Source: a virus | Length of the DNA stretch: 32,871 bases | Strand: one strand, 5' to 3' | IMG/VR virus record: IMGVR_UViG_3300027509_000010 | Made by a program: the position numbers and the translations under genes | Notes under the pieces: model-generated | Databases searched by the model: none | What the model was told of the DNA's origin: nothing | The model's input: only the letters and a program-made list of their open reading frames with translations | Shown: positions 1 to 32,871 of the stretch, in pieces | Numbering within the stretch: the stretch's first letter is position 1 | Layout: every line of letters begins with the position of its first letter

Positions 1-127
1 ATGGGTGGAGGTATTGGCGGCCGGTGCGGCCGGGGACTGCTAGCTCTGGCTGGGTCATGCTTGGGTCTCCAGGGTGTACTCGATGGTGGTGGATTGATCG
101 ATGCCCAGGGCGACGGTGTGGGTGGGG
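1..127. repeat. Left copy of a 127-bp exact direct terminal duplication, indicating a circular or terminally redundant contig
   Basis: Bases 1-127 (atgggtggaggtattggcgg...gtgtgggtgggg) are identical base for base to 32745-32871. Confidence 0.95.
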
Positions 128-1101: not shown

Positions 1102-1197
1102 AGTCGCAGATCATATGGCAGATGGTTTGGAGAGGTCGGGATGGTGGCGGTGGGCGGGCCTATCGTTGACGGAATCCCTACAGAAAGCAACACACCC
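1102..1197. promoter_or_regulatory. Divergent intergenic control region
   Basis: 96-bp gap between divergent genes. On the minus strand TATGAT (revcomp of 1111-1116) lies 9 nt before the ATG at 1101 with no SD, which looks leaderless. GCAGAT is directly repeated at 1106-1111 and 1118-1123 around a CATATG palindrome. On the plus strand there is a TATCGT (TANNNT) at 1161-1166. Confidence 0.35.
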
Positions 1198-2454: not shown

Positions 2455-2499
2455 CAACTTCCGCTGGGACCCAGGAGCCGACGCCTGGGAGACCACGCG

Positions 2500-2550
2500 A
2501 AAAGGCCCCGCCACTTCCATCGCTGGAGGTAGCGGGGCCTTTCTCGTTTT
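2500..2550. terminator. Bidirectional intrinsic terminator between convergent genes
   Basis: aaaggccccgc (2501-2511) pairs with gcggggccttt (2532-2542). An inner 7-bp stem acttcca/tggaggt carries a tcgc tetraloop. The plus strand continues ctcgtttt, and the minus strand has a TTTT run. Confidence 0.6.
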
Positions 2551-2553
2551 GGG

Positions 2554-2748
2554 TTAAGCCAGGAGGTTGCGGCGGAGGCGGAGGCAGTGCTCGGCCTGGC
2601 GGTCGACGTCGAGGGCCAGGCGGAGGAACCGGCGCCCAGCCTGGGAGCCGTGGCCCCGCTCGGACGCCTTGCGGCGGAGGTCGTCGGCCTCGTTGCGGTG
2701 GATGCCCTCTGCGTTGTAGAGGCGGGTGATGTCTGCGGTGTTGTCCAT
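2554..2748 (-). CDS. Hypothetical protein, 64 aa; last gene of the accessory operon
   Basis: ATG-initiated ORF ending 4 nt before the bidirectional terminator. The sequence is charged and helical-looking. Confidence 0.55.
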   Translation of the reverse strand: MDNTADITRLYNAEGIHRNEADDLRRKASERGHGSQAGRRFLRLALDVDRQAEHCLRLRRNLLA

Positions 2749-2794
2749 AACAACACCCTACCGTGTACCAGGTGGCATACGCAACCTTGGTTGT

Positions 2795-3256
2795 TTATTC
2801 GAGCTGGAAAGGTTCCGTCCGCCACGTATGGAGGAGACCCTCGCGTCCACCCTCGGTGTCGATGGGAGTCTCGTGGCCGGTGAGCATCCAGACGGCGCCA
2901 CCCAGGGCCTCGTCCGCCTCCCGGACCTCCTCGGGGATGAGGTTGACGAACGTCTGAGTGACGCACCCCTCACGGTCTTGGCCGGTACCGGTCAGCAATC
3001 CCAGGACCACGCCTGGGGGCTCGACCGATTGCCACCAGAATGAGCCGACAACGTCCACCCTCTCGCGGTAGCACTTGGTCCCGGTGACGGAGACGGACTC
3101 CTCGGTGACCTCGTTGACGACCTGGACGGGGAAATCGGCGATGGGGTCCCAGACCCTGTTGGCGGCGACGGCGGCGAGGATGGCGGAGGTGGTGACCAGG
3201 GTCATGACGACCAGGGCGACCCAGGCGATTCGTGGAGTGTGGCGCTCGGGGCTCAT
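2795..3256 (-). CDS. N-terminally membrane-anchored protein, 153 aa
   Basis: ATGA overlap with the upstream gene (3253-3256). A single TM helix IAWVALVVMTLVTTSAILAAVAA is followed by a soluble domain of about 115 aa containing two Cys. Confidence 0.75.
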   Translation of the reverse strand: MSPERHTPRIAWVALVVMTLVTTSAILAAVAANRVWDPIADFPVQVVNEVTEESVSVTGTKCYRERVDVVGSFWWQSVEPPGVVLGLLTGTGQDREGCVTQTFVNLIPEEVREADEALGGAVWMLTGHETPIDTEGGREGLLHTWRTEPFQLE

Positions 3257-3588
3257 CTCTTGCCCTCGCTCGCCCAGTCGAGTTGCCGGTCCAGGGCGGC
3301 GGCCAGGGCGGCCTCTCGTTTCTGACTCTCCAGGAGGAGGACCTCCAGTTGCTTCTCTCGGTCCGCGGTGTCGGCCGTCTTCTGGCTGACGAGCTGGCCC
3401 CTGATGACAGCCCAGCCCAGGCCCAGGGTGACCAACCCCAGGACCCCGGTGGAGCCGTACTGGAGGACGTCGACCCCTGGGGTGACTGGGGTGGTCTGGC
3501 CCAGCCAGAGTCCGGCCTGGGCGGCGACGTTAGCGGCGAATGCGGCGGCGGTTGTGCCGAACGCTACGGGGAGGAGTGGGAGTGCCAT
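3253..3588 (-). CDS. Membrane protein with C-terminal coiled coil, 111 aa (holin-like topology)
   Basis: The internal ATG (MALPLLPVAFG...) is chosen because the longer ORF would overlap the upstream gene by 40 nt. There are two hydrophobic segments, then the charged helix KTADTADREKQLEVLLLESQKREAALAAALDRQ. Confidence 0.6.
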   Translation of the reverse strand: MALPLLPVAFGTTAAAFAANVAAQAGLWLGQTTPVTPGVDVLQYGSTGVLGLVTLGLGWAVIRGQLVSQKTADTADREKQLEVLLLESQKREAALAAALDRQLDWASEGKR

Positions 3589-3632
3589 ATCCGGCGAATG
3601 ATAGACCACCCATCCCCCACCCCTCGGCGATG

Positions 3633-3926
3633 TCAGGCCAGGCCGTTGAGCGCCCAGGACAACACCTCCCACTGGGCGTGGGCCACGAGCCCACCCAGGC
3701 CGTCCTCGCGGGCCTGGATGGACAGCTCCTGGAGCCGCTCCTCCATCTCGGTGTCACTCGGCGGGTCACCCAGCGGGGAGCATGAGGCGATGTCCACGGC
3801 GAGCCGGTTGTGGGCGATGGCCAGGCAGTCGTTGCACCACTCCCGGCCCTCGCCCAGAAAGGTGGCTGGCTGACCACAATGGCAGGGCGTGGAGACGGGG
3901 AGCCCCTCCAGGTCGAACAGTCTCAC
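3633..3926 (-). CDS. Zinc-ribbon protein, 97 aa
   Basis: GTG start overlaps the upstream TGA as GTGA (3923-3926). The motif is CHCG-x12-CNDC. Confidence 0.6.
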   Translation of the reverse strand: MRLFDLEGLPVSTPCHCGQPATFLGEGREWCNDCLAIAHNRLAVDIASCSPLGDPPSDTEMEERLQELSIQAREDGLGGLVAHAQWEVLSWALNGLA

Positions 3927-4696
3927 GGCGTCCCCCAGTTCGTGAGACGTCGAGGTGGTCGGACGTTGGCGATGGCCAGGCGAGTGGCCACCTCGTCCTC
4001 CCGGTGAAGGTGGCAGAGTGGGCGGCGGCGCTCGGCCCTGTTCCTGGTCCACGCCGGGAGCCCGCAATGGCGACACTCCCCGGCCAGGCCGCTGTCCTCA
4101 CCCAGGACGAGAGGGTCCGGCCCTCCACTCAGGGCGAGGGAGAGAGGGGCGAACGCCTCCGCCACTCGCTCCATGGCCTCGACCCACTGGTCCGACGCCT
4201 CGACGACCTGGACGACGGAATCGAACCACAGGTCCGGCCTGGGTAGGTCTCGGTCTCGGATGGTGAACTCCCGGAACCCTGGAGTGGCAGGGCCAGCCAC
4301 GGAGTGGAGGACCAGCGGGGAGATTCCCAGAGGCCAGCGCGCTCCGCCCGCCTCGACCAGGTCCCAGTAGTCCTCCGCCAGAGGGTCGAGCTGTCGCTCC
4401 GACGGGGAGGATGGGAACGGCGGCCGCCTGGCGACCAGGCCCTCCTCGTCCCGGACCTCGGTCATGTAAAGGCGACACGGTTGGCAGAACCATCCGTCCT
4501 CCAGGTCGAGGTGGAGCGAGGTGCAACGGACGCATCCATCGTCTATGACTGGGCCGACGTCGCTGTAGTGCTCCATGCTCCGCTGGGTGGGCGAGGCGAG
4601 GACGTCGAGGACGGCGTGGGTGGCCCTGGTGATGACGTCGGCCGGGAGGTGGAGGTCATCAATGCCCTCCAGGATGGAGTCGTAGGTGGTGGTCAT
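3923..4696 (-). CDS. Hypothetical protein with two zinc-ribbon motifs, 257 aa
   Basis: ATGA overlap with the upstream gene (4693-4696). Motifs are CVRC-x12-CQPC near the N-terminus and CRHCG-x15-CHLH near the C-terminus. Confidence 0.75.
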   Translation of the reverse strand: MTTTYDSILEGIDDLHLPADVITRATHAVLDVLASPTQRSMEHYSDVGPVIDDGCVRCTSLHLDLEDGWFCQPCRLYMTEVRDEEGLVARRPPFPSSPSERQLDPLAEDYWDLVEAGGARWPLGISPLVLHSVAGPATPGFREFTIRDRDLPRPDLWFDSVVQVVEASDQWVEAMERVAEAFAPLSLALSGGPDPLVLGEDSGLAGECRHCGLPAWTRNRAERRRPLCHLHREDEVATRLAIANVRPPRRLTNWGTP

Positions 4697-4887
4697 TTGA
4701 GCCAGCCCGATAGTCCGGTCCGGCCCTTGACGACCATGGCCGCCTTGCCCTCGTGGAGGGAGCAGTAGCGGCCGGGGTTGTAGATGGACAGGATGGTCCC
4801 GCACCCCTCGGCGCATCGGCGGCCCTCGACCTTGGCCTTGGGCTCGTGGGTGACGGTCTCTCCTGGCCGGTTCCGTAACGTCGCCAT
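4693..4887 (-). CDS. Small zinc-binding protein, 64 aa
   Basis: Start overlaps the LuxR gene stop by 1 nt. The motif is CAEGCG-x11-CSLH. Confidence 0.7.
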   Translation of the reverse strand: MATLRNRPGETVTHEPKAKVEGRRCAEGCGTILSIYNPGRYCSLHEGKAAMVVKGRTGLSGWLK

Positions 4888-5186
4888 TAGAGGAGCGCCT
4901 CCGGGACCTGATCGGCGGCGCCTGGGTGGAGGGCACCCATGACCACAATGGCCTTGTCCAGTTGCTTGACCCTGTAGCCCAGGACCAGGGCGACGGCCTT
5001 GGTTTGGCTGGGGACGTCGAGCTTGCGGAGGATGGCCTTGACCTGGTTGCGGACGGTGCCCTCGCCTTTCTTGAGTTTGGTGGCGACCTCGGCGATATCG
5101 AGGCCCTTGGTGAGGAGGCGGAGGACGTCGACCTCGGCCGGGGTGAGTGTCTTTATGAGCGAACCCAGAGGCTTGCGGCCGGTCAT
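4887..5186 (-). CDS. LuxR/GerE-family helix-turn-helix transcriptional regulator, stand-alone, 99 aa
   Basis: LTPAEVDVLRLLTKGLDIAEVATKLKKGEGTVRNQVKAILRKLDVPSQTKAVAL matches the GerE-type HTH pattern (LT.rE..vL.l...G....eIA..L..s..TV..h...i..KL.v..r..Av). ATGA overlap with the upstream gene. Confidence 0.88.
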   Translation of the reverse strand: MTGRKPLGSLIKTLTPAEVDVLRLLTKGLDIAEVATKLKKGEGTVRNQVKAILRKLDVPSQTKAVALVLGYRVKQLDKAIVVMGALHPGAADQVPEALL

Positions 5187-5401
5187 TGCTGGGCCTCCTT
5201 GCGTAGGTCGGCGATGACTTCCAGGAGCTGATTGCGTGTCCGCTCGGCGCCGTCGTTCTCCGCGTAGTTGAGGAGGCCGACCATGCGGAGGGCCACGTCC
5301 TCGCTCATGCCGGAGATGAGTGGCGTGCGGTCGAGGACTGTGCAGATGGCCCAGCGGTTGACGTCCCAGGAGTGTGGGCGGGCGGTAAATTTAATGCCCA
5401 T
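5183..5401 (-). CDS. Hypothetical protein, 72 aa
   Basis: The ATG (MGIKFT...) overlaps the upstream TGA by 1 nt. The ORF track extends it two codons to a TTG. Confidence 0.65.
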   Translation of the reverse strand: MGIKFTARPHSWDVNRWAICTVLDRTPLISGMSEDVALRMVGLLNYAENDGAERTRNQLLEVIADLRKEAQQ

Positions 5402-5649
5402 CAGCAAGACCCAAACCGCTCAGAGATTAGAGCGCCAGCAAACTCGCCATTTACATCAATCTCAAACCCATAGGATTCAAGACTCTCAACATGTTCAGGG
5501 GTGAGACTTTCCGCCCATCCAGGGCCTGGTGCTGGAATCCAGAACACGTCATGGCTACATCCAGAGAATCGGCTTACCCCTCCATCTGGGAGGTATTGCT
5601 GAATGATCCGTAGAGCCTTGATGAAATCCTCCAGGTGGTGCCGGTCCAT
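5401..5649 (-). CDS. Small acidic hypothetical protein, 82 aa, in a low-GC islet
   Basis: The ATG overlaps the upstream TGA by 1 nt. My hand count gives 129/249 GC (about 52%) against about 65% in the flanks. The protein has 13 Asp/Glu and 5 Lys/Arg. Confidence 0.65.
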   Translation of the reverse strand: MDRHHLEDFIKALRIIQQYLPDGGVSRFSGCSHDVFWIPAPGPGWAESLTPEHVESLESYGFEIDVNGEFAGALISERFGSC

Positions 5650-5783
5650 CAGAATGCCCAGCGGAGGAGGGCGACGGCGGTGGCGAACACGGCGAGGGCC
5701 AGGATGGCCAGGATGGTGACGGTGGCTCCGATGACGACGATGCGGGCCGTGTCCTCCGTGAGCTTGTCGTGGGTGGACTTCAT
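5649..5783 (-). CDS. Single-pass small membrane protein, 44 aa
   Basis: Internal ATG of ORF 5649..5846, preceded by AGGAGA 6 nt upstream. The TM helix is IVVIGATVTILAILALAVFATAVALL. Confidence 0.65.
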   Translation of the reverse strand: MKSTHDKLTEDTARIVVIGATVTILAILALAVFATAVALLRWAF

Positions 5784-5812
5784 AGGTTTCTCCTGTTGGT
5801 AGGTGTGGGGGT

Positions 5813-5841
5813 ACCATACAGGACAGGGCGCCCGGTTCCAA
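5813..5841 (-). promoter_or_regulatory. Sigma-70-like promoter for the accessory operon
   Basis: On the minus strand: TTGGAA (5841-5836), a 17-nt spacer, then TATGGT (5818-5813). The -10 ends 29 nt upstream of the ATG at 5783, and the leader contains the AGGAGA SD. Confidence 0.45.
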
Positions 5842-5982
5842 ACCATCTGGGATATGGGCCGCTCGACCCATGGAGAAACACCCAGCCAGGGCCGACCAGA
5901 TAGACATGGAAACCACGGCCATCCTCATCGCCTACCTCGACGGACACCTCCGCCTCGACCAGCTCGACGTGGCCCTGGCCTC

Positions 5983-6027
5983 AAAAAAGGGGAAAGGCCC
6001 TCCACCCCTGGAGAAAGGTGGAGGCCC
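5983..6027 (-). terminator. Intrinsic terminator ending the late/lysis operon
   Basis: On the minus strand: gggcctccacc, a 10-nt loop, ggtggagggcc (8 bp, one mismatch, 2 bp), then TTTCCCCTTTTTT. It starts 22 nt after the endolysin stop. Confidence 0.6.
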
Positions 6028-6048
6028 TCGACGTCGGCAACTACGACG

Positions 6049-7008
6049 TCACCCCGGCGCTAACGTCCCGCGCGCCTTGGCAAGGATTGACTCCGCCCGC
6101 TCCAGGTCCCCGCGACCCGAAGCAATGAACCGGCCAGCCAACGCCAGCGACTCCACCAGGTCAGCGTCGACAGAGACAGCAACAGGGACGACAGGGTCAG
6201 GCGCCTGGGCCGGTGGGGCGGCCGCCAGCAACCTCTCCGCCCGCCTGGTGTCGTCGCCATAGATGCCGTCCACCCAGAGCGCCCTCATCGGATATTTACC
6301 CAGGTCGATGAGACCAAGCTCGGGGCGAGCCAGGGCCGCCGCCCAGAGGTCCGCCTGGAGGTCCTTGACTTGCTGACCGACAGGGACGTCCGGGAGGTCG
6401 ATGGCGGCCTGGTCGAGGTCCGGCAGTTCGTGACCCAGGACGGCCCCGGCGAACACGGCCCAGGTCCGGTCCGTCATATCTGGGTCCGTATGGTCCTGCT
6501 CTGGAATCTGGCCGTGACCAAACCAGCCGCGGCCGTCGTCCCATTGCTGGTTGGTGGCCTTGCGGTAGGGCTTGGTCATGCGCCCCAGGGGGAACGCTGG
6601 GAGGACCCAGCCGGTGGCGGTGAGCCAGCGGAGCAGAGCGGCCAGGGCCACGAGTAGCTCGGTGGTGTGCTCGTGACCGGCGTGGCCCTCCAGCTCGATT
6701 TGGATGGCGCCGTCCGTGTTGGTCTCCACCCCGCCGCGACGATTACGTAGCGCCCGCGAGTAGTGGTCCAGGCGGTAGTGCTGGTGGACGGCCCCGGTGG
6801 CGAGGACGGTGAAATGAGGGATTCCTCCGCTCTGGGGGTACCAGTTGAGAACTCCGCCGCTGGCCTGGTTGAAATCGTTGAGCGAGGAGGGGCCGCCCTG
6901 GGTGGTGTGGGCGACGCCCTTGCGGTTCTCGGGGTCACGGAACGCGGCCGTGGGCCACTCTTCATAGGCGGTCCAGATGGCGTCCGGGTAGATGACTTGG
7001 CGCTCCAT
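6049..7008 (-). CDS. Endolysin: N-acetylmuramoyl-L-alanine amidase (Amidase_2/PGRP-like) with a C-terminal peptidoglycan-binding domain
   Basis: The N-terminal part has amidase_2-like motifs (VAHTTQG, IPHFTV, NTDGAIQIELEGHAGH, GHGQIPEQDHTDP). The C-terminal part, VKDLQADLWAA...LWVDGIYGDDTRRAERLL, resembles PG_binding_1. The gene lies directly downstream of a holin-like gene. Confidence 0.85.
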   Translation of the reverse strand: MERQVIYPDAIWTAYEEWPTAAFRDPENRKGVAHTTQGGPSSLNDFNQASGGVLNWYPQSGGIPHFTVLATGAVHQHYRLDHYSRALRNRRGGVETNTDGAIQIELEGHAGHEHTTELLVALAALLRWLTATGWVLPAFPLGRMTKPYRKATNQQWDDGRGWFGHGQIPEQDHTDPDMTDRTWAVFAGAVLGHELPDLDQAAIDLPDVPVGQQVKDLQADLWAAALARPELGLIDLGKYPMRALWVDGIYGDDTRRAERLLAAAPPAQAPDPVVPVAVSVDADLVESLALAGRFIASGRGDLERAESILAKARGTLAPG

Positions 7009-9701: not shown

Positions 9702-9962
9702 ATGTCCAGAGGAGGCCGCCCCTGGAGGCGCAAGTGTGAGCGAGTCAGACGGGAGGAGTCCCATTGCTGGCTATGCCATCGGGAGATAGACAAGTCCCTG
9801 GAGTACCCGGACCCTGGCTACTTCTCCGTGGACCACGTTGTCCCGGTCAGCAAGGGCGGAGGCGACGAGAGGTCCAACCTCCGCGCGGCCCACCTCGAAT
9901 GCAACCAGTCGCGGGGCAATAGTGACCCAGAGCGGACACGGCCTCAATCTCGGGAATGGTGA
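9702..9962 (+). CDS. HNH endonuclease, 86 aa
   Basis: Motifs are CWLCH...DHVVPVSKGGGDERSNLRAAHLECNQSRG, i.e. a zinc knuckle plus the H-N-H core. Confidence 0.88.
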   Translation: MSRGGRPWRRKCERVRREESHCWLCHREIDKSLEYPDPGYFSVDHVVPVSKGGGDERSNLRAAHLECNQSRGNSDPERTRPQSREW

Positions 9963-15542: not shown

Positions 15543-15563
15543 GTTGGTCCTCCCTGGAACGAC

Positions 15564-15619
15564 AAAAACCCCGCCCCGTGGAAGTTGGTCACCTACGAAC
15601 CAAGTTTCCAGGGGCGGGG
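15564..15619 (-). terminator. Strong intrinsic terminator downstream of the major tail protein gene
   Basis: On the minus strand: ccccgcccctggaaacttggt, a 9-nt loop, accaacttccacggggcgggg (about 19 bp with small internal loops), followed by TTTTT. Confidence 0.75.
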
Positions 15620-15639
15620 TCGGCCGGGGTTGCCGCTTG

Positions 15640-22677: not shown

Positions 22678-22880
22678 CGGCTTAGCGCCTTTTTGATTTC
22701 GCCCTCCAGGTCGCTAGGGGGGTCGAACGGAGAGAGGCAGTCTCCACGGGGGTGGGGGGGCTGGTGATTTTTCGAGCCCCCTGGGGGCTGGGGGTGGGGG
22801 GTGCCATGTGGGACTGTGCTGGAGGGTGTCTGGGTTGCCCGGATTTCGGCCTTGTACCAGGTGGGAGGGGGGGTGCCAGG

Positions 22881-22889
22881 TGGTATACT
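22881..22889 (+). promoter_or_regulatory. Extended -10 promoter element TGGTATACT for the plus-strand peptidase gene
   Basis: TGn-TATACT at 22881-22889 lies 27 nt upstream of the ATG at 22917. The leader carries GAAAGG 7 nt before the ATG. No good -35 is present. Confidence 0.4.
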
Positions 22890-22916: not shown

Positions 22917-23375
22917 ATGCGCATTCAACCTACATACCAAACCATCGGCGCGGAAGGTGTTGGTAACTGTATGCCAGCGTCTATTGCAACGATCACTGGC
23001 ATTGACCTGGCGGAGATTCCGCACTTCGTTGAGGCGGCGGTGGAGGCGGGGGCGGTGGCCGTTGATGGCTCCACCCTTGAGCCCATGGCCTGGCTCGGGG
23101 TGTTCGCCACGGTCCAGGGTTGGCTCACTCGGAACGGTTGGTCGCTCGATGTTGTCGAGCGCAACGGTGCGAGTCAGCTCGCTCACTCGGAGCCGGTGAT
23201 GTGCTTGGCGTTGGTGATGTCCCAACAGGTGGAGGGTGCCCCCCACGTCATCGTTGTGGATGGGGCGGGTCGTCAAGTGTGGGACCCCCAGTCGCTCAAT
23301 GAGCGAAGCTATCAGCCGGACGAGGTGCTGGCGATGGGGGCGGTGACCAAGCTGGCCTGGCCGCCTCGGGACTGA
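22917..23375 (+). CDS. Papain-fold cysteine peptidase, C39-like, 152 aa
   Basis: YQTIGAEGVGNCMPASIATITG fits a Gln...Cys nucleophile context, and APHVIVVDGAGRQVWDPQ fits a His...Asp context, as in peptidase C39-like domains. No signal peptide is present. It is a plus-strand gene with its own promoter-like element and terminator. Confidence 0.6.
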   Translation: MRIQPTYQTIGAEGVGNCMPASIATITGIDLAEIPHFVEAAVEAGAVAVDGSTLEPMAWLGVFATVQGWLTRNGWSLDVVERNGASQLAHSEPVMCLALVMSQQVEGAPHVIVVDGAGRQVWDPQSLNERSYQPDEVLAMGAVTKLAWPPRD

Positions 23376-23387
23376 GTCGGTGGGTGT

Positions 23388-23427
23388 GGGGGGGTGGGTG
23401 GATACCCACCCCCCCTCCTCGTTTTGG
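23388..23427 (+). terminator. Intrinsic terminator of the peptidase cassette
   Basis: gggggggtgggt (23388-23399), loop ggat, acccaccccccc (23404-23415), a 12-bp perfect stem, then tcctcgttttgg. The minus-strand version lacks a U tract. Confidence 0.65.
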
Positions 23428-23431
23428 TTGG

Positions 23432-23980: not shown

Positions 23981-24015
23981 GGTGTTGGCTTTCTGTAGGT
24001 GGACTGGATGGTAGT

Positions 24016-24306
24016 TCGCGACACTCGCGACACTCGCGACAGGTGCGGCGGCCGCTCTGGGTGTCGCGAGTGTCGCGTGTCGCGTGGGGTTGCCGGAGGC
24101 CGGTGGGCTGACACGGTCACACAATCCCATAATCCCTGGAAACAACAGGGAGAGAGAGAGAGTTATCGTTTTGACCCTTTAACGCGACACGCGACTGGCG
24201 CGACACTTCGCCACTGTCAGCGGTTGCCTCGCGCTCTGGGTGGTCGGTGTCGCGTGGGTGTCGCGTCGGCTCCGGGACTGACGGAGGTGTCGCGAGGTGT
24301 CGCGAG
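24016..24306. repeat. Iteron-like array: 12 copies of (T)CGCGACAC / GTGTCGCG(A) flanking an AT-rich tract; candidate replication origin
   Basis: Forward copies lie at 24016-24042 (x3, tandem), 24183-24190 and 24199-24206. Inverted copies lie at 24061-24084 (x3), 24247-24254, 24258-24265, 24287-24296 and 24297-24306. The stretch 24121-24180 is 26/60 GC and includes (AG)6 at 24151-24162. Confidence 0.6.
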
Positions 24307-29840: not shown

Positions 29841-30380
29841 TTATCCGAGAAGCGACGCCGGAGCGACTGGTGGAGCCGCTGCTGGTGCAGGAGCTGGAGC
29901 CGCTGCTGGTGCAGGAGCTGGAGCCGCTGCTGGTGCAGGAGCTGGAGCCGCTGCTGGTGCAGGAGCTGGAGCCGCTGCTGGTGCAGGAGCTGGAGCCGCT
30001 GCCTCGGTGAGGTAGTGGCCCTTGGCGACGTCCAGGGTGAAACGCTTGGGGGCGTTCTGGCCAGGCTGGGCCTCGCCGTCCTCGGTGTAGATGAGGACGT
30101 GGCGGTCGCCGGACTCTGGCTTGGCCGCTGACAGGAGACTCTTGGCCATCCCCTGGCTGGCGGTGTACCAGAACAGTTGCGGCCATGGCGCCTCCGGGTC
30201 TCCCATTGCGATGCCGTCAGAGACCGGGGCCTCATGCTCGGCGCAACGGTAGAGGACCTGGGGCGAGCGCTTGCCCTTGTACTCGTTGACCTCCATGCGG
30301 ACGTACTCTCCGCCGATCCAGTCGCCCATACGGTGGGGCTTCCAGTAGTTGCTTGCTGTCTCGAATTCGGACCAGCTCAT
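29841..30380 (-). CDS. Hypothetical protein with a C-terminal (AAAPAPAP)n repeat, 179 aa
   Basis: ATGA overlap with the upstream gene. A globular N-terminal part of about 125 aa is followed by a perfect Ala/Pro repeat. Confidence 0.75.
   Translation of the reverse strand: MSWSEFETASNYWKPHRMGDWIGGEYVRMEVNEYKGKRSPQVLYRCAEHEAPVSDGIAMGDPEAPWPQLFWYTASQGMAKSLLSAAKPESGDRHVLIYTEDGEAQPGQNAPKRFTLDVAKGHYLTEAAAPAPAPAAAPAPAPAAAPAPAPAAAPAPAPAAAPAPAPAAAPPVAPASLLG
29872..30003. repeat. Perfect 24-bp tandem repeat, 5.5 copies (ggagccgctgctggtgcaggagct)
   Basis: Units at 29872, 29896, 29920, 29944 and 29968 are identical, and a 12-bp partial unit follows at 29992. On the minus strand they encode AAAPAPAP repeats. 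Confidence 0.95.
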
Positions 30381-30688: not shown

Positions 30689-32802
30689 TCCTTGCCTCCG
30701 TCGATGACGGTGAGGGCCGGGGCTGGCGCCTCGTCTGGATGCTTGGCGGCGAGGTGGTTGGCGAGACCCCGCTCAGTCTTATAGGTCTTGGGACAGTGGG
30801 GACACTGGCCTGGGTCGATGGTCGGCGGGGCCTCGGTTGGCTCCCCTGGGGTCGGTGGGACTGCCTTGGGCTTGGCCTTGGGTCCGGCGCTGGCCGCCAC
30901 CACCTTATTGCCGTCGTCCTTGGGTTTGACCAGGACGGACTCCGGTGGGTCCGCTTGCATCGTGAGGGCGTAGAGGACTGGGTCGTTGGCGACGGCCTTG
31001 GTGGAACGAGGTGAGGGGCGGCCGTGGCGGTTGGCCTGCCAGCGGGCGACCCCGCGGGCCACGGTCTTAGTCCCCCAGTATTGCTCCAGCTTGTACTCCC
31101 GGTCACGAGCGGTGGCCTCCAGGTAGTCGGCGTCCCCCACGGGGTCCACACTGATCTCATCGAGCGACCAGTGGCGGACCAGGGCCACCAGGCGCTCCAG
31201 CTCCAGGTCAGACATTGCCGAACCGACAGCGTCTTTGTTCCCCGTGGCCGCCCAGAGAATCGCCAGGGCCTCCTTGTCCAGGACGTTGTGGACCTGGAAC
31301 GCTACACACTCGGCGCGTCGAGCGGCCACGGCCTCGGCGACGTCGAGGATTTCGGTGATGCGCTCGACGTGGGCGGACGAGGCCTTGGGCGAGGACAGGT
31401 TGGGGATGTCCTCGCGCATCCTGGTCAGGTTCACGCGGGCGGCGAGGTCCTGGGGCAGGGCGTGCCAGCGCGGCCCGATGGCCTCGACGGCGGCCGGGTC
31501 AGCCTTGACAAACGTGGGAGTATCTGGCCCTGGCGACGCCTCCACCGCGGCCATGGCCGGAGTCCTGGTCGGTGGCGCCGGGGTCACGACGAATGGGAGC
31601 TGGTTGTGGGCCTCGACCCTGTCCAGCCACTCGTGAATCTGGCGGAAGTCTCCGGGGGTGTAGGTGTAGCGGGAGGTCTCGGCGCCCTCCGGCCCCCCGA
31701 ACGGTGGGATGGTGCCGGTGACCCAGAGGGTGCCCAGGTCTAGGAGGGCCTTGGCGCCTTTCTTGACGGTGGCCGGGTCCTCGGAGTGCTCCATGGCCAT
31801 GATGGCCGCAATGCGCGCCCTGGCGACGTCGTACGGGGTGGACGGTGTCGCTGTCGGGATGGGCTCCGGTGGGAATATCTCGTCGCCGATGACGGAGCGC
31901 TTGCCGACGTTGGACCAGTCGCCGGTCGGGATGGCTCCGACGAAGATGGCGAACTGGGATTCGTCGCAGACCACTGGTTTGACGTGGAGGCCGGTGGACC
32001 AGTTCTTGGACTGTTGCCACTCGGGGAGGGTGTAGGTCTTGCCTCCGTTGACCTTGACGTTGCGGGCGGGGTGGACGGGGAATACGTGCTCCTCGTCCGG
32101 TCGGATGGAGATGGCGACACCACCAGCGACCTCGGGGATGGGCTCCCGGCGCCAGGTGCCATCCTCGCCCTTGATGACCATGTAATCGGCGTAACGGATG
32201 GCGGCGAGCTGGAGGGCGACCTCTGGCCAGATGCCGGACCTCGATGTCTTGAGGTCGGCGACGACGAGGCCGTAGCCGGGGAGGTAGGCGATGAGGTCGA
32301 GGGTCCCGGCGTAGCCGTAGGTCTCGGAGAACACGGTGACCTCGACGTGGTCACAGACCGGTTGCCACTCTCGGAAAAAGCGTTCCACCACTGGAGCGAA
32401 CGGCCCGCACGATGTGCGACACCAATCGGACCCAGGGCCGCCCAGGGCCAGCTCCTCGAAATACTCGTGGGCGGCGTCGCCCTGGTCCCCGGCGTGGTCA
32501 CGGTCGCGGTCTGATGCCTTGGCGATCCGGTCCATGATGACTTTGGGGTCATCGGGGTATTGGGTGGAAACCTCCAGCCACTCCTCCAGGCCCCAGTAGG
32601 CATACTCGGCGGTGCCGTATTTGATCCAGTTGTCGAGCTGTTTGGGGATGCCGCGCTTGATGACGGTGGTGATGGAGGTGTAGCGGTAGTCCAGGGGCCG
32701 GTGGTCTGGTTGGTAGTCGGCGGGGAGGGGCGGGTTGTGGGCGGATGGGTGGAGGTATTGGCGGCCGGTGCGGCCGGGGACTGCTAGCTCTGGCTGGGTC
32801 AT
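30685..32802 (-). CDS. PD-(D/E)XK (RecB/Cas4-like) nuclease with a long C-terminal extension ending in a classical C2H2 zinc finger, 705 aa
   Basis: Nuclease motifs are GYAGTLDLIAY (D), VVADLKTSRSG (D-x-K) and QLAAIRYADY (QxxxY). The C-terminal CPHCPKTYKTERGLANHLAAKH has the form C-x2-C-x3-Y-x5-L-x2-H-x4-H and maps to 30739-30804. Confidence 0.8.
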   Translation of the reverse strand: MTQPELAVPGRTGRQYLHPSAHNPPLPADYQPDHRPLDYRYTSITTVIKRGIPKQLDNWIKYGTAEYAYWGLEEWLEVSTQYPDDPKVIMDRIAKASDRDRDHAGDQGDAAHEYFEELALGGPGSDWCRTSCGPFAPVVERFFREWQPVCDHVEVTVFSETYGYAGTLDLIAYLPGYGLVVADLKTSRSGIWPEVALQLAAIRYADYMVIKGEDGTWRREPIPEVAGGVAISIRPDEEHVFPVHPARNVKVNGGKTYTLPEWQQSKNWSTGLHVKPVVCDESQFAIFVGAIPTGDWSNVGKRSVIGDEIFPPEPIPTATPSTPYDVARARIAAIMAMEHSEDPATVKKGAKALLDLGTLWVTGTIPPFGGPEGAETSRYTYTPGDFRQIHEWLDRVEAHNQLPFVVTPAPPTRTPAMAAVEASPGPDTPTFVKADPAAVEAIGPRWHALPQDLAARVNLTRMREDIPNLSSPKASSAHVERITEILDVAEAVAARRAECVAFQVHNVLDKEALAILWAATGNKDAVGSAMSDLELERLVALVRHWSLDEISVDPVGDADYLEATARDREYKLEQYWGTKTVARGVARWQANRHGRPSPRSTKAVANDPVLYALTMQADPPESVLVKPKDDGNKVVAASAGPKAKPKAVPPTPGEPTEAPPTIDPGQCPHCPKTYKTERGLANHLAAKHPDEAPAPALTVIDGGKE

Positions 32803-32871
32803 GCTTGGGTCTCCAGGGTGTACTCGATGGTGGTGGATTGATCGATGCCCAGGGCGACGGTGTGGGTGGGG
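32745..32871. repeat. Right copy of the 127-bp terminal duplication
   Basis: Identical to 1-127. It duplicates the 3' end of CDS 55..288 and the start codon region of CDS 30685..32802. Confidence 0.95.

Follow-up and report, generated by a model that had tools for sequence, protein, structure and literature searches.

We found that the ten-gene block at positions 2554-5841 (minus strand) of the IMG/VR virus record IMGVR_UViG_3300027509_000010 is the usual opening of the non-structural arm of a phage genome, neither a replaced lysogeny module nor a recognizable defense system. The record is a stretch of 32,871 nucleotides (nt), here called the window, and the candidate genes are named g1 to g10 in reading order. 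The block is probably, if by a modest measure, an early, non-structural regulatory or host-takeover operon that would be transcribed by the host RNA polymerase and would also provide envelope-directed proteins. Its genes are new; the kind of gene array that they form is well known.

The block is a separate transcription unit

We found transcription signals at both ends of the block, each where a reading made earlier from the letters alone (the sequence-only reading) had placed it. Upstream, the late/lysis operon closes at an intrinsic terminator (5983..6029, minus strand), with a hairpin at 6029-5994 (folding free energy, ΔG, of -28.2 kcal/mol) followed by UUUCCCCUUUUUU, with the U-tract running to 5983. 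Downstream, the block and a convergent cysteine-rich gene have in common a bidirectional intrinsic terminator (2498..2546, both strands), whose stem at 2546-2498 has ΔG values of -36.9 and -37.0 kcal/mol on the two strands (z = -6.9 and -5.6) and U-tracts on either side. Both terminators consist of a GC-rich hairpin and a U-tract, and a simple terminator scan missed both.

The block promoter (5813..5841, minus strand) has TTGGAA at 5841-5836 and TATGGT at 5818-5813, separated by 17 nt, with a predicted transcription start at ~5806; a Shine-Dalgarno (SD) sequence, AGGAGA, follows, and then the g1 ATG at 5783. The pattern TTGNNN-(16-18)-TANNNT has three matches in the genome, two of which are intergenic, correctly oriented and directly upstream of g1 and g10. 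Since correct-strand intergenic DNA makes up ~3.5% of positions, the chance of two such placements is estimated at ~0.004. Judged by its hexamers, the block promoter is sigma-A/sigma-70-like and the best predicted host-type promoter in the genome. The promoter ahead of g10 (2755..2784, minus strand; TTGCGT-18-TAGGGT) lies in a 46-nt gap and, because its -10 element ends 6 nt ahead of the g10 ATG, g10 probably has an additional, leaderless transcript of its own.

Three other candidates around the block promoter were set aside. A minus-strand open reading frame (ORF) of 55 codons that overruns the promoter (5947-5780) has a codon-usage score of -0.18, and a plus-strand ORF (5870-6262) meets no stop until deep in the endolysin antisense; the score of +0.51 for its first 38 codons is attributed to CTCGAC (Leu-Asp) repeats that its translation shows in frame. 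A GTCGAG cluster upstream of the promoter is as dense in 451 of 2000 random placements.

The sequence-only reading had described ten tightly coupled genes; nine are well supported, g2 is doubtful, and the coupling is uneven. Stop/start overlaps (TGATG, ATGA and GTGA) occur as described and couple g1 to g7, and g8 to g9, tightly, with gaps of 23-44 nt ahead of g8 and 46 nt ahead of g10. In the stated frame, all genes but g2 score +0.12 to +0.59 per codon, with lower or negative scores in the other frames. These nine were called by independent gene callers on two other assemblies, and the protein database contains each of them.

The exception, g2 (5401..5649, minus strand), is an acidic ORF of 82 codons with TGATG overlaps with its neighbors at both ends. 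Its codon-usage score is -0.25 (-0.21 without the stop codon), compared with -0.02 to +0.59 for real small genes; no gene-calling pipeline called it. Its frame is the sole open one of six (p ~0.02 given the composition), the other five holding 2-8 stops. The region 5381-5630 is the lowest-GC 250 nt in the genome (0.50 versus a mean of 0.655, standard deviation 0.030), which suggests a recent foreign origin or a special constraint. A structured RNA was considered and rejected (no Rfam family; fold z = +0.43). Hence, g2 is unproven as a gene, and is probably a real one that standard callers overlooked owing to its foreign composition.

The block encodes zinc-motif and envelope-directed proteins

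Motifs bear out the zinc-ribbon and membrane proteins of the sequence-only reading: g5, g6 and g7 carry CxxC/CxC...CxxC/H motifs, and g1, g8 and g9, which have transmembrane (TM) segments, are three envelope-directed proteins. g5 (4693..4887, minus strand, as are all the block genes) encodes a basic protein of 64 amino acids with a CCCH zinc knuckle (CAEGCGTILSIYNPGRYCSLH). The g6 product (3923..4696) is acidic, with 257 amino acids and two conserved zinc ribbons. g7 (3633..3926) starts with GTG in a GTGA overlap, and its 97-amino-acid product, of no known family, combines a zinc ribbon with an acidic C-terminal half that is helical by inspection.

Among the envelope-directed proteins, g1 (5649..5783) has 44 amino acids, one TM segment (residues ~15-33, by hydropathy), a strong SD sequence, a codon-usage score of +0.59 (+0.70 without the stop) and no family. 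g8 (3253..3609) encodes 118 amino acids, or 111 if it starts at ATG 3588; the GTG at 3609, which has an SD-like GGGGGA upstream, is more likely the start, and both lengths occur in databases. Its product has no family, two TM segments (hydrophobic windows 1-23 and 49-67) and a charged C-terminal region of 45 residues, whose heptad-like pattern comes from reading the sequence and not from a coiled-coil predictor. The 153-amino-acid product of g9 (2795..3256) begins with a signal-anchor or signal peptide, followed by an exported domain of ~120 amino acids with two Cys; we found no lipobox. An AlphaFold2 (AF2) single-sequence model of low confidence (predicted local distance difference test, pLDDT, 57) has a helix at 8-32 and then seven strands, so the exported domain may, tentatively, be beta-rich; Foldseek gave generic beta-sandwich matches only, at E > 0.01.

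Two further small genes complete the block: g3 (5183..5401; 72 amino acids, codon score +0.35), an orphan of no family whose cluster contains only contigs of this phage, and g10 (2554..2748; 64 amino acids, codon score +0.34), a basic orphan that is helical by inspection.

Apart from g4, the products are as unrecognizable as the sequence-only reading had held, with no match in Pfam, PHROGs, NCBIfam or PADLOC. When the ten concatenated products were compared by tblastn with 50,697 phages and 72,556 plasmids, only the g4 helix-turn-helix (HTH) matched; the two records from the phage search were those that g4 retrieves when queried by itself, a positive control for the concatenate. At the nucleotide level (blastn), the block matched none of the 50,697 deposited phages. 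The eight products other than g4 and g6, concatenated, had no significant match among solved structures, and the 90%-identity clusters of the nine called products comprise only contigs of this phage. By these searches, eight of the ten products are strict ORFans. For g5, g6 and g7, we also found no Pfam, PHROG or NCBIfam match at E <= 1 to the zinc-finger regulator families DksA/TraR C4 and Ogr/Delta; a CxxCG...C..H likeness to TraR-type fingers was seen by eye.

g4 is a stand-alone GerE-type regulator

The sequence-only reading had recognized a LuxR/GerE HTH in g4 (4887..5186; 99 amino acids, isoelectric point 10), and family searches agreed. Pfam GerE (PF00196) matches with E = 5.7e-10 and 39.1 bits (gathering cut-off 23.5) over profile positions 2-56 of 57, the NCBIfam NarL/NarP C-terminal domain matches at 6e-8, and the PDB matches are the C-terminal domains of NarL, VraR, RcsB, DosR and GerE. 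Residues 11-69 align over the entire four-helix DNA-binding domain of the GerE/NarL-FixJ effectors. By these matches, g4 is a genuine LuxR C-terminal/GerE HTH of the NarL type that forms a stand-alone effector domain. It is also the only transcription-factor match among the non-structural proteins in the family scans; an indexed search of 5.8 billion proteins gathered eight candidates, of which g4 alone scored.

We found no second domain in g4 with Pfam or NCBIfam, and only 12 residues precede the HTH. There is no receiver domain, the NarL/FixJ-class matches covering C-terminal domains only, and no autoinducer-binding domain, since the protein has 99 amino acids and the HTH alone matches in Pfam and NCBIfam. 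Hence, g4 is a GerE-like effector and not a quorum-sensing receptor; GerE, too, is a lone effector domain without receiver or ligand domain. Phage LuxR-type quorum-sensing receptors that bind host autoinducers have been described (PMC6456758). Like g4, these are LuxR-family HTH proteins carried by phages, but without a second domain g4 cannot be such a receptor. In contrast to the GerE/NarL domains, g4 is phage-encoded and very divergent, has a C-terminal extension of 30 residues, and has a candidate DNA site that is not an inverted repeat.

Three control regions share an element

When all intergenic regions were compared with one another, the best shared element was CATATnnCAGATGGTTTGGA. At the block promoter its copy is the 20-bp element CATATccCAGATGGTTTGGA (5837..5856, minus strand; 10-nt core GATGGTTTGG at 5847-5838), a candidate operator that overlaps the -35. 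The second copy (1112..1131, plus strand) is in the divergent stretch that separates the early operon from the cysteine-rich gene (ATG 1198). These two 20-bp copies are identical at 18 of 20 positions, a value reached by 5 of 600 intergenic shuffles (p ~0.008); the exact 13-mer that the two regions share is not significant taken alone (p ~0.14). A third copy of the core (22937..22946, minus strand) is found upstream of terS and the late operon, in a divergent region and within the first codons of a reverse 152-amino-acid gene. Genome-wide, GATGGTTTGG has exactly three copies against 0.07 expected, a number reached in none of 100 shuffles, and the copies are spread one apiece over the three control regions that part the transcription units of the genome.

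At the early operon, where the first ATG is at 1101 and a putative -10 (TATGAT, 1115-1110) lies 8 nt before it, the core copy at 1121-1130 sits 6-15 nt upstream of that -10, in what would be a repressor-like position.

Another sequence, CCACCTGGTACA, is present without mismatch in the g10 promoter spacer (2764-2775, minus strand) and again in the control region upstream of terS, there as an exact copy and a near-copy 19 nt apart (22853-22864 and 22872-22883, minus strand). It is suggestive of a second shared regulatory motif, and we judged it not individually significant.

The block does not travel as a unit

Only one gene in ten, g6, has relatives that could be located. An indexed search of the 5.8 billion proteins returned g6 itself only, and HMMER, run exhaustively on 1.84 billion representatives, added three small relatives (P0013, P0014 and P0016; E = 8e-10 to 2e-6). 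In the four-sequence alignment, GCVRC..DGWFC..CRL is invariant; the C-terminal ribbon has just three invariant residues, C211, R223 and C228, and CxxC..NR..RR.P.C..H is present in g6, P0013 and P0014. IMG/VR pattern scans (g6, endolysin, portal and the g6-family alignment) gave no relatives, and a GTDB scan of 185,579 species-representative genomes gave no member of the g6 family, so no prophage copies were found. There was no PDB match, and the AF2 single-sequence model of g6 was unusable (pLDDT 34). g6 belongs to a tiny (four-member), metagenome-only double-zinc-ribbon family confined to phage-like contigs.

With the g6 alignment, we located two of the three relatives on uncultured phage-like contigs, which give two independent metagenomic contexts, L003 and L005 (the latter identical to L004). 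The gene order in L003 is a MerR-like HTH, the g6-like gene, a ribbon-helix-helix protein, a recombinase-like protein, a single-stranded DNA-binding protein, a methyltransferase-like protein, a small zinc knuckle, a secreted protein and an HNH endonuclease, as labeled from ORF translations and not from family scans; by this content, L003 is a phage early region. Its methyltransferase-like protein is homologous to an early 272-amino-acid protein of the window (tblastn, E = 1e-29). In L005, the g6-like gene comes after a 72-amino-acid ORF and before an HNH protein. Comparing every window protein with L003 and L005 by phmmer gave no further shared gene at E <= 1.

Small ORFs in both contexts resemble g5 at the level of a motif (G..C..C...L.[IL]YN); this knuckle ORF adjoins the g6-like gene in L005 and is 4.6 kb off in L003, and it is the sole hint that another block gene may be linked to g6. 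We rejected them as g5 homologs, since phmmer found nothing at E <= 1.

Hence, because g6 relatives occur without other block members, the block is a transcriptional unit and not a conserved functional cassette. The self-contained operon of the sequence-only reading stands as an autonomous transcription unit and fails as a co-occurring gene set: so far as neighborhoods could be compared, the genes largely occur independently.

The genome is laid out like those of lytic actinophages

An exact direct repeat of 127 nt at both ends of the window (1-127 and 32745-32871) is the mark of a circular assembly. The exact g6 protein occurs on four contigs, each of ~32.8 kb, on which no host junctions were seen; the two that were fetched (ENA, JGI) are circular permutations of the window, with 100% identity over the whole block. 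Hence, given the permutations and the terminal repeat, the window is a complete genome of ~32.74 kb, circular or terminally redundant. The best portal relatives are from Arthrobacter, Gordonia, Mycobacterium and Microbacterium phages (30-36% identity), by which the phage is a distant, uncultured actinobacteriophage. Its GC content is 65%.

Nearly all genes are on the minus strand, in the order replication, packaging/head/tail, holin-like gene and endolysin, and then the block. The early end reads from four small genes (1101-55) across the assembly junction into the adjoining gene for a 705-amino-acid protein (start 32802) with an exonuclease-like N-terminal region, after which come a DUF3987 primase-helicase and RuvC. 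The late genes encode terminase, portal, prohead protease, major capsid, tape measure, and Dit-like and Tal-like tail proteins. The holin-like gene (7340-7008; 110 amino acids, three TM segments) has a stop that overlaps the start of the endolysin gene (319 amino acids), which lies ahead of the block.

The sequence-only reading had placed the block where a lysogeny module would normally sit. Instead, the layout is standard for lytic actinophages, whose commonest architecture has nearly all genes on a single strand, the lysis genes downstream of those for the tail, small non-structural genes next and 1-3 reverse genes, and includes no integrase or repressor (PMC7302621). In Arthrobacter phage 1191A, the closest deposited phage by portal, the holin is followed by one reverse gene, ~17 small hypothetical genes, an exonuclease and replication genes. 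The right-arm arrays of Microbacterium EB/EC/EF phages and Arthrobacter 1191A occupy the same site as the block, after lysis and ahead of exonuclease/primase/resolvase genes, and like it consist of many small overlapping orphans on the structural-gene strand. In actinophage genomes, small genes that are non-essential and of unknown function predominate (PMC7474061). The early genes outside the block are likewise nearly all without family, and four carry CxxC...CxxC motifs; hence, neither orphan status nor zinc ribbons are special to the block. In contrast to those arrays, the non-structural genes here form two units, split by the bidirectional terminator and the convergent secreted-protein gene, and the first unit has its own canonical promoter; except for the g4 HTH, there is no sequence similarity to deposited phages.

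As the sequence-only reading had stated, Pfam and PHROGs scans of essentially all ORFs showed no integrase, excisionase, ParAB or protelomerase; no immunity repressor or recombinase was found by these scans in the non-structural, structural-region or reverse-strand ORFs. The defense system that it had also offered found no support, as PADLOC matched only the HTH part of g4: PADLOC-DB 2.0 gave no effectors or sensors, the g4 HTH matched CARF/Csa3/CasR regulator models, and g8 and g9 matched over short stretches at E > 0.005. The best explanation of the genome is a lytic, integrase-less siphovirus of an actinobacterial host.

Other features of the genome

Exactly three genes of the window are on the reverse (plus) strand. 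The cysteine-rich gene (1198-2454), convergent with the block, encodes a secreted protein of 418 amino acids with a signal peptide and no Pfam or PHROG family. Its 28 Cys are spaced regularly, ~13 residues apart, as 14 hairpin-like 'C-P-x(9-14)-C' units. The last residues are ...PSFTG, the codon usage is atypical (score -0.01), and gene callers give the gene different starts (437 versus 240 amino acids). Kinship with the secreted protein of L003 (9870-10529, ending ...VGFTG) was rejected, as there is no significant similarity past the terminal FTG. The second reverse gene (9702-9962), previously uncalled, encodes an HNH endonuclease of 86 amino acids (Pfam HNH, 1.9e-10) and fills an apparent gap of 406 nt between the Tal-like gene and a gene for a 743-amino-acid tail protein. 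The third (22917-23375), between RuvC and terS, shares a divergent control region with the late operon; its 152-amino-acid product has a GNCMPAS...H...D pattern reminiscent of a cysteine peptidase, with no family match, and a hairpin of G and C runs follows it at ~23385-23431.

Copies of GTGTCGCGA/CGCGACAC, some direct and some inverted, with 25-nt arms that are 88% complementary, cluster between the genes for the primase-helicase and RuvC (23981-24116 and 24182-24206) and look like iterons or an origin. A 12/24-nt tandem repeat (29847-30026), with 10 overlapping copies, gives an early 179-amino-acid protein its low-complexity C-terminal tail, (APAPAPAA)n. Within the tail-gene region, a strong hairpin with a U-tract (CCCCGCCCC...GGGGCGGGGTTTTTG; 15543-15639, minus strand) is probably an attenuator or terminator internal to the late operon. 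Across the whole window, there are no tRNA genes and no Rfam families.

Proposed role of the block and its alternatives

We propose that, of two non-structural transcription units, the block comes first, between the lysis cassette and the replication genes, and that host RNA polymerase would transcribe it early, without phage factors. g4 would then bind the GATGGTTTGG element at its own -35, in the promoter spacer of the early operon and upstream of the late operon, and binding at the three sites would couple autoregulation to the temporal program. g5-g7 may act early on nucleic acid or on host or RNA polymerase proteins; the g6 relatives lie directly downstream of small DNA-binding-type or zinc-knuckle genes and, in L003, beside recombination/replication genes. 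g1, g8 and g9 would enter or cross the membrane and may exclude superinfecting phage or modulate lysis. Of the three roles offered by the sequence-only reading, a regulatory or host-takeover module thus fits best, while lysis timing and superinfection exclusion are possible for the three membrane proteins only.

Several points weigh against this proposal. Eight of the ten products have no homolog, so that what they do is read only from their composition and topology. At 8/12, the match of the block promoter to the consensus is weak and under the threshold of an E. coli-type scan, and the early timing is inferred from promoter type and from synteny in two independent relatives. A terminator and a convergent gene stand between the block and the replication operon, which is more than the simple start of an early arm would need by way of insulation. 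g4 is the natural candidate to bind GATGGTTTGG because it is the only recognizable transcription factor in the genome, and there is no direct link between the two; classical LuxR-family sites are inverted repeats, which this element is not, and the shared-motif statistics are partly post hoc.

We consider it unlikely that the block is instead a lysis-timing module, in which g8, g1 and g9 regulate lysis from outside the holin-endolysin pair and the soluble proteins are unrelated passengers. By its predicted topology, g8 is like the D29 gp11 holin, whose two TM helices are joined by a coiled-coil C-terminus that matters for oligomerization and lysis timing (PMC9671378), and actinophage lysis cassettes typically hold regulators with one or two TM domains, which in cluster A phages are found, with an accessory lipoprotein, in different genome regions (bioRxiv 10.64898/2026.08.27.747656). 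With its two TM segments and heptad-like C-terminus, g8 would correspond to the two-TM regulators (D29 gp11, LysF1a) and g1, with one TM segment and as the first gene past the endolysin, to their one-TM partners. However, neither resembles these in sequence, g8 is in a separate transcription unit, the eighth gene and seven genes past the promoter, and g1 is nearly without a cytoplasmic tail and so lacks the long charged C-terminal domain of one-TM holin-like or LysF1b-type proteins. Moreover, the endolysin already has a holin-like gene, with three TM segments, overlapping its start; g1 is set apart from the endolysin by a strong terminator and a promoter of its own; g9 has no lipobox; and PHROG lysis families and Pfam holins match none of the products.

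Distinctly unlikely is a superinfection-exclusion or defense module, expressed early as Imm and Sp of phage T4 are and regulated by g4, in which g8 and g9, alone or together with g1, keep other phages from passing DNA into the cell or penetrating its wall. g8 (two TM segments) and g9 (anchored, with an exported domain) are comparable in topology to Imm and Sp, and the block has its own promoter and terminator insulation. In T4, a lytic phage, these small envelope proteins shield the infected cell, stopping DNA injection and peptidoglycan degradation (PMC11436027). However, the likeness is topological only, without homology and in a different host envelope; PADLOC, Pfam and PHROG give no match to exclusion or defense proteins except the g4 HTH (CARF/Csa3-type regulators), and the gene set does not co-occur elsewhere. 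Similarly doubtful is that the block has no concerted function and is a mosaic of unrelated, individually dispensable orphans under one promoter. The strict ORFans, the foreign base composition of g2 and the g6 relatives found without other block genes would agree with a mosaic, as would the statement in PMC7474061 that small genes of actinophages are mostly dispensable and without known function; the tight translational coupling of g1-g7 and g8-g9 argues against it, as do the location in the block of the only recognizable regulator and a promoter motif common to other control regions.

The least likely rival, which we regard as very improbable, is a cryptic lysogeny-like or carrier-state switch, in which g4, made from a constitutive host-type promoter, is an immunity repressor that shuts the early replication operon by binding the element at the -10/spacer region of that operon. 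The core copy just upstream of the putative early -10, the most host-like promoter of the genome and the position between lysis and early genes are in its favor. Against it are the lack of integrase, excisionase, partition and protelomerase genes, the absence of the g6 family from the species-representative genomes, the uniform size of the four g6 contigs with their permutations and no host junctions seen, and the fit of all genome features to lytic actinophages. The boldest reading, which we also hold to be improbable, is a minimal master switch of the phage made up of g4 and the GATGGTTTGG element, with g4 made from the only canonical host-type promoter. g4 would autoregulate its own -35, repress the replication operon at its -10/spacer and act on the late control region, and would thereby set a temporal program or a non-integrative carrier state without an integrase, with g5-g7 as partners or antagonists.

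Unrecognizable HTH, zinc-ribbon and membrane genes after the lysis cassette are the default of lytic actinophage genomes, which calibrates what should be expected of such a block. Within this array, the divergent GerE-type regulator and the core found in all three control regions give a concrete hypothesis of how temporal control may be exerted in an uncultured phage lineage.

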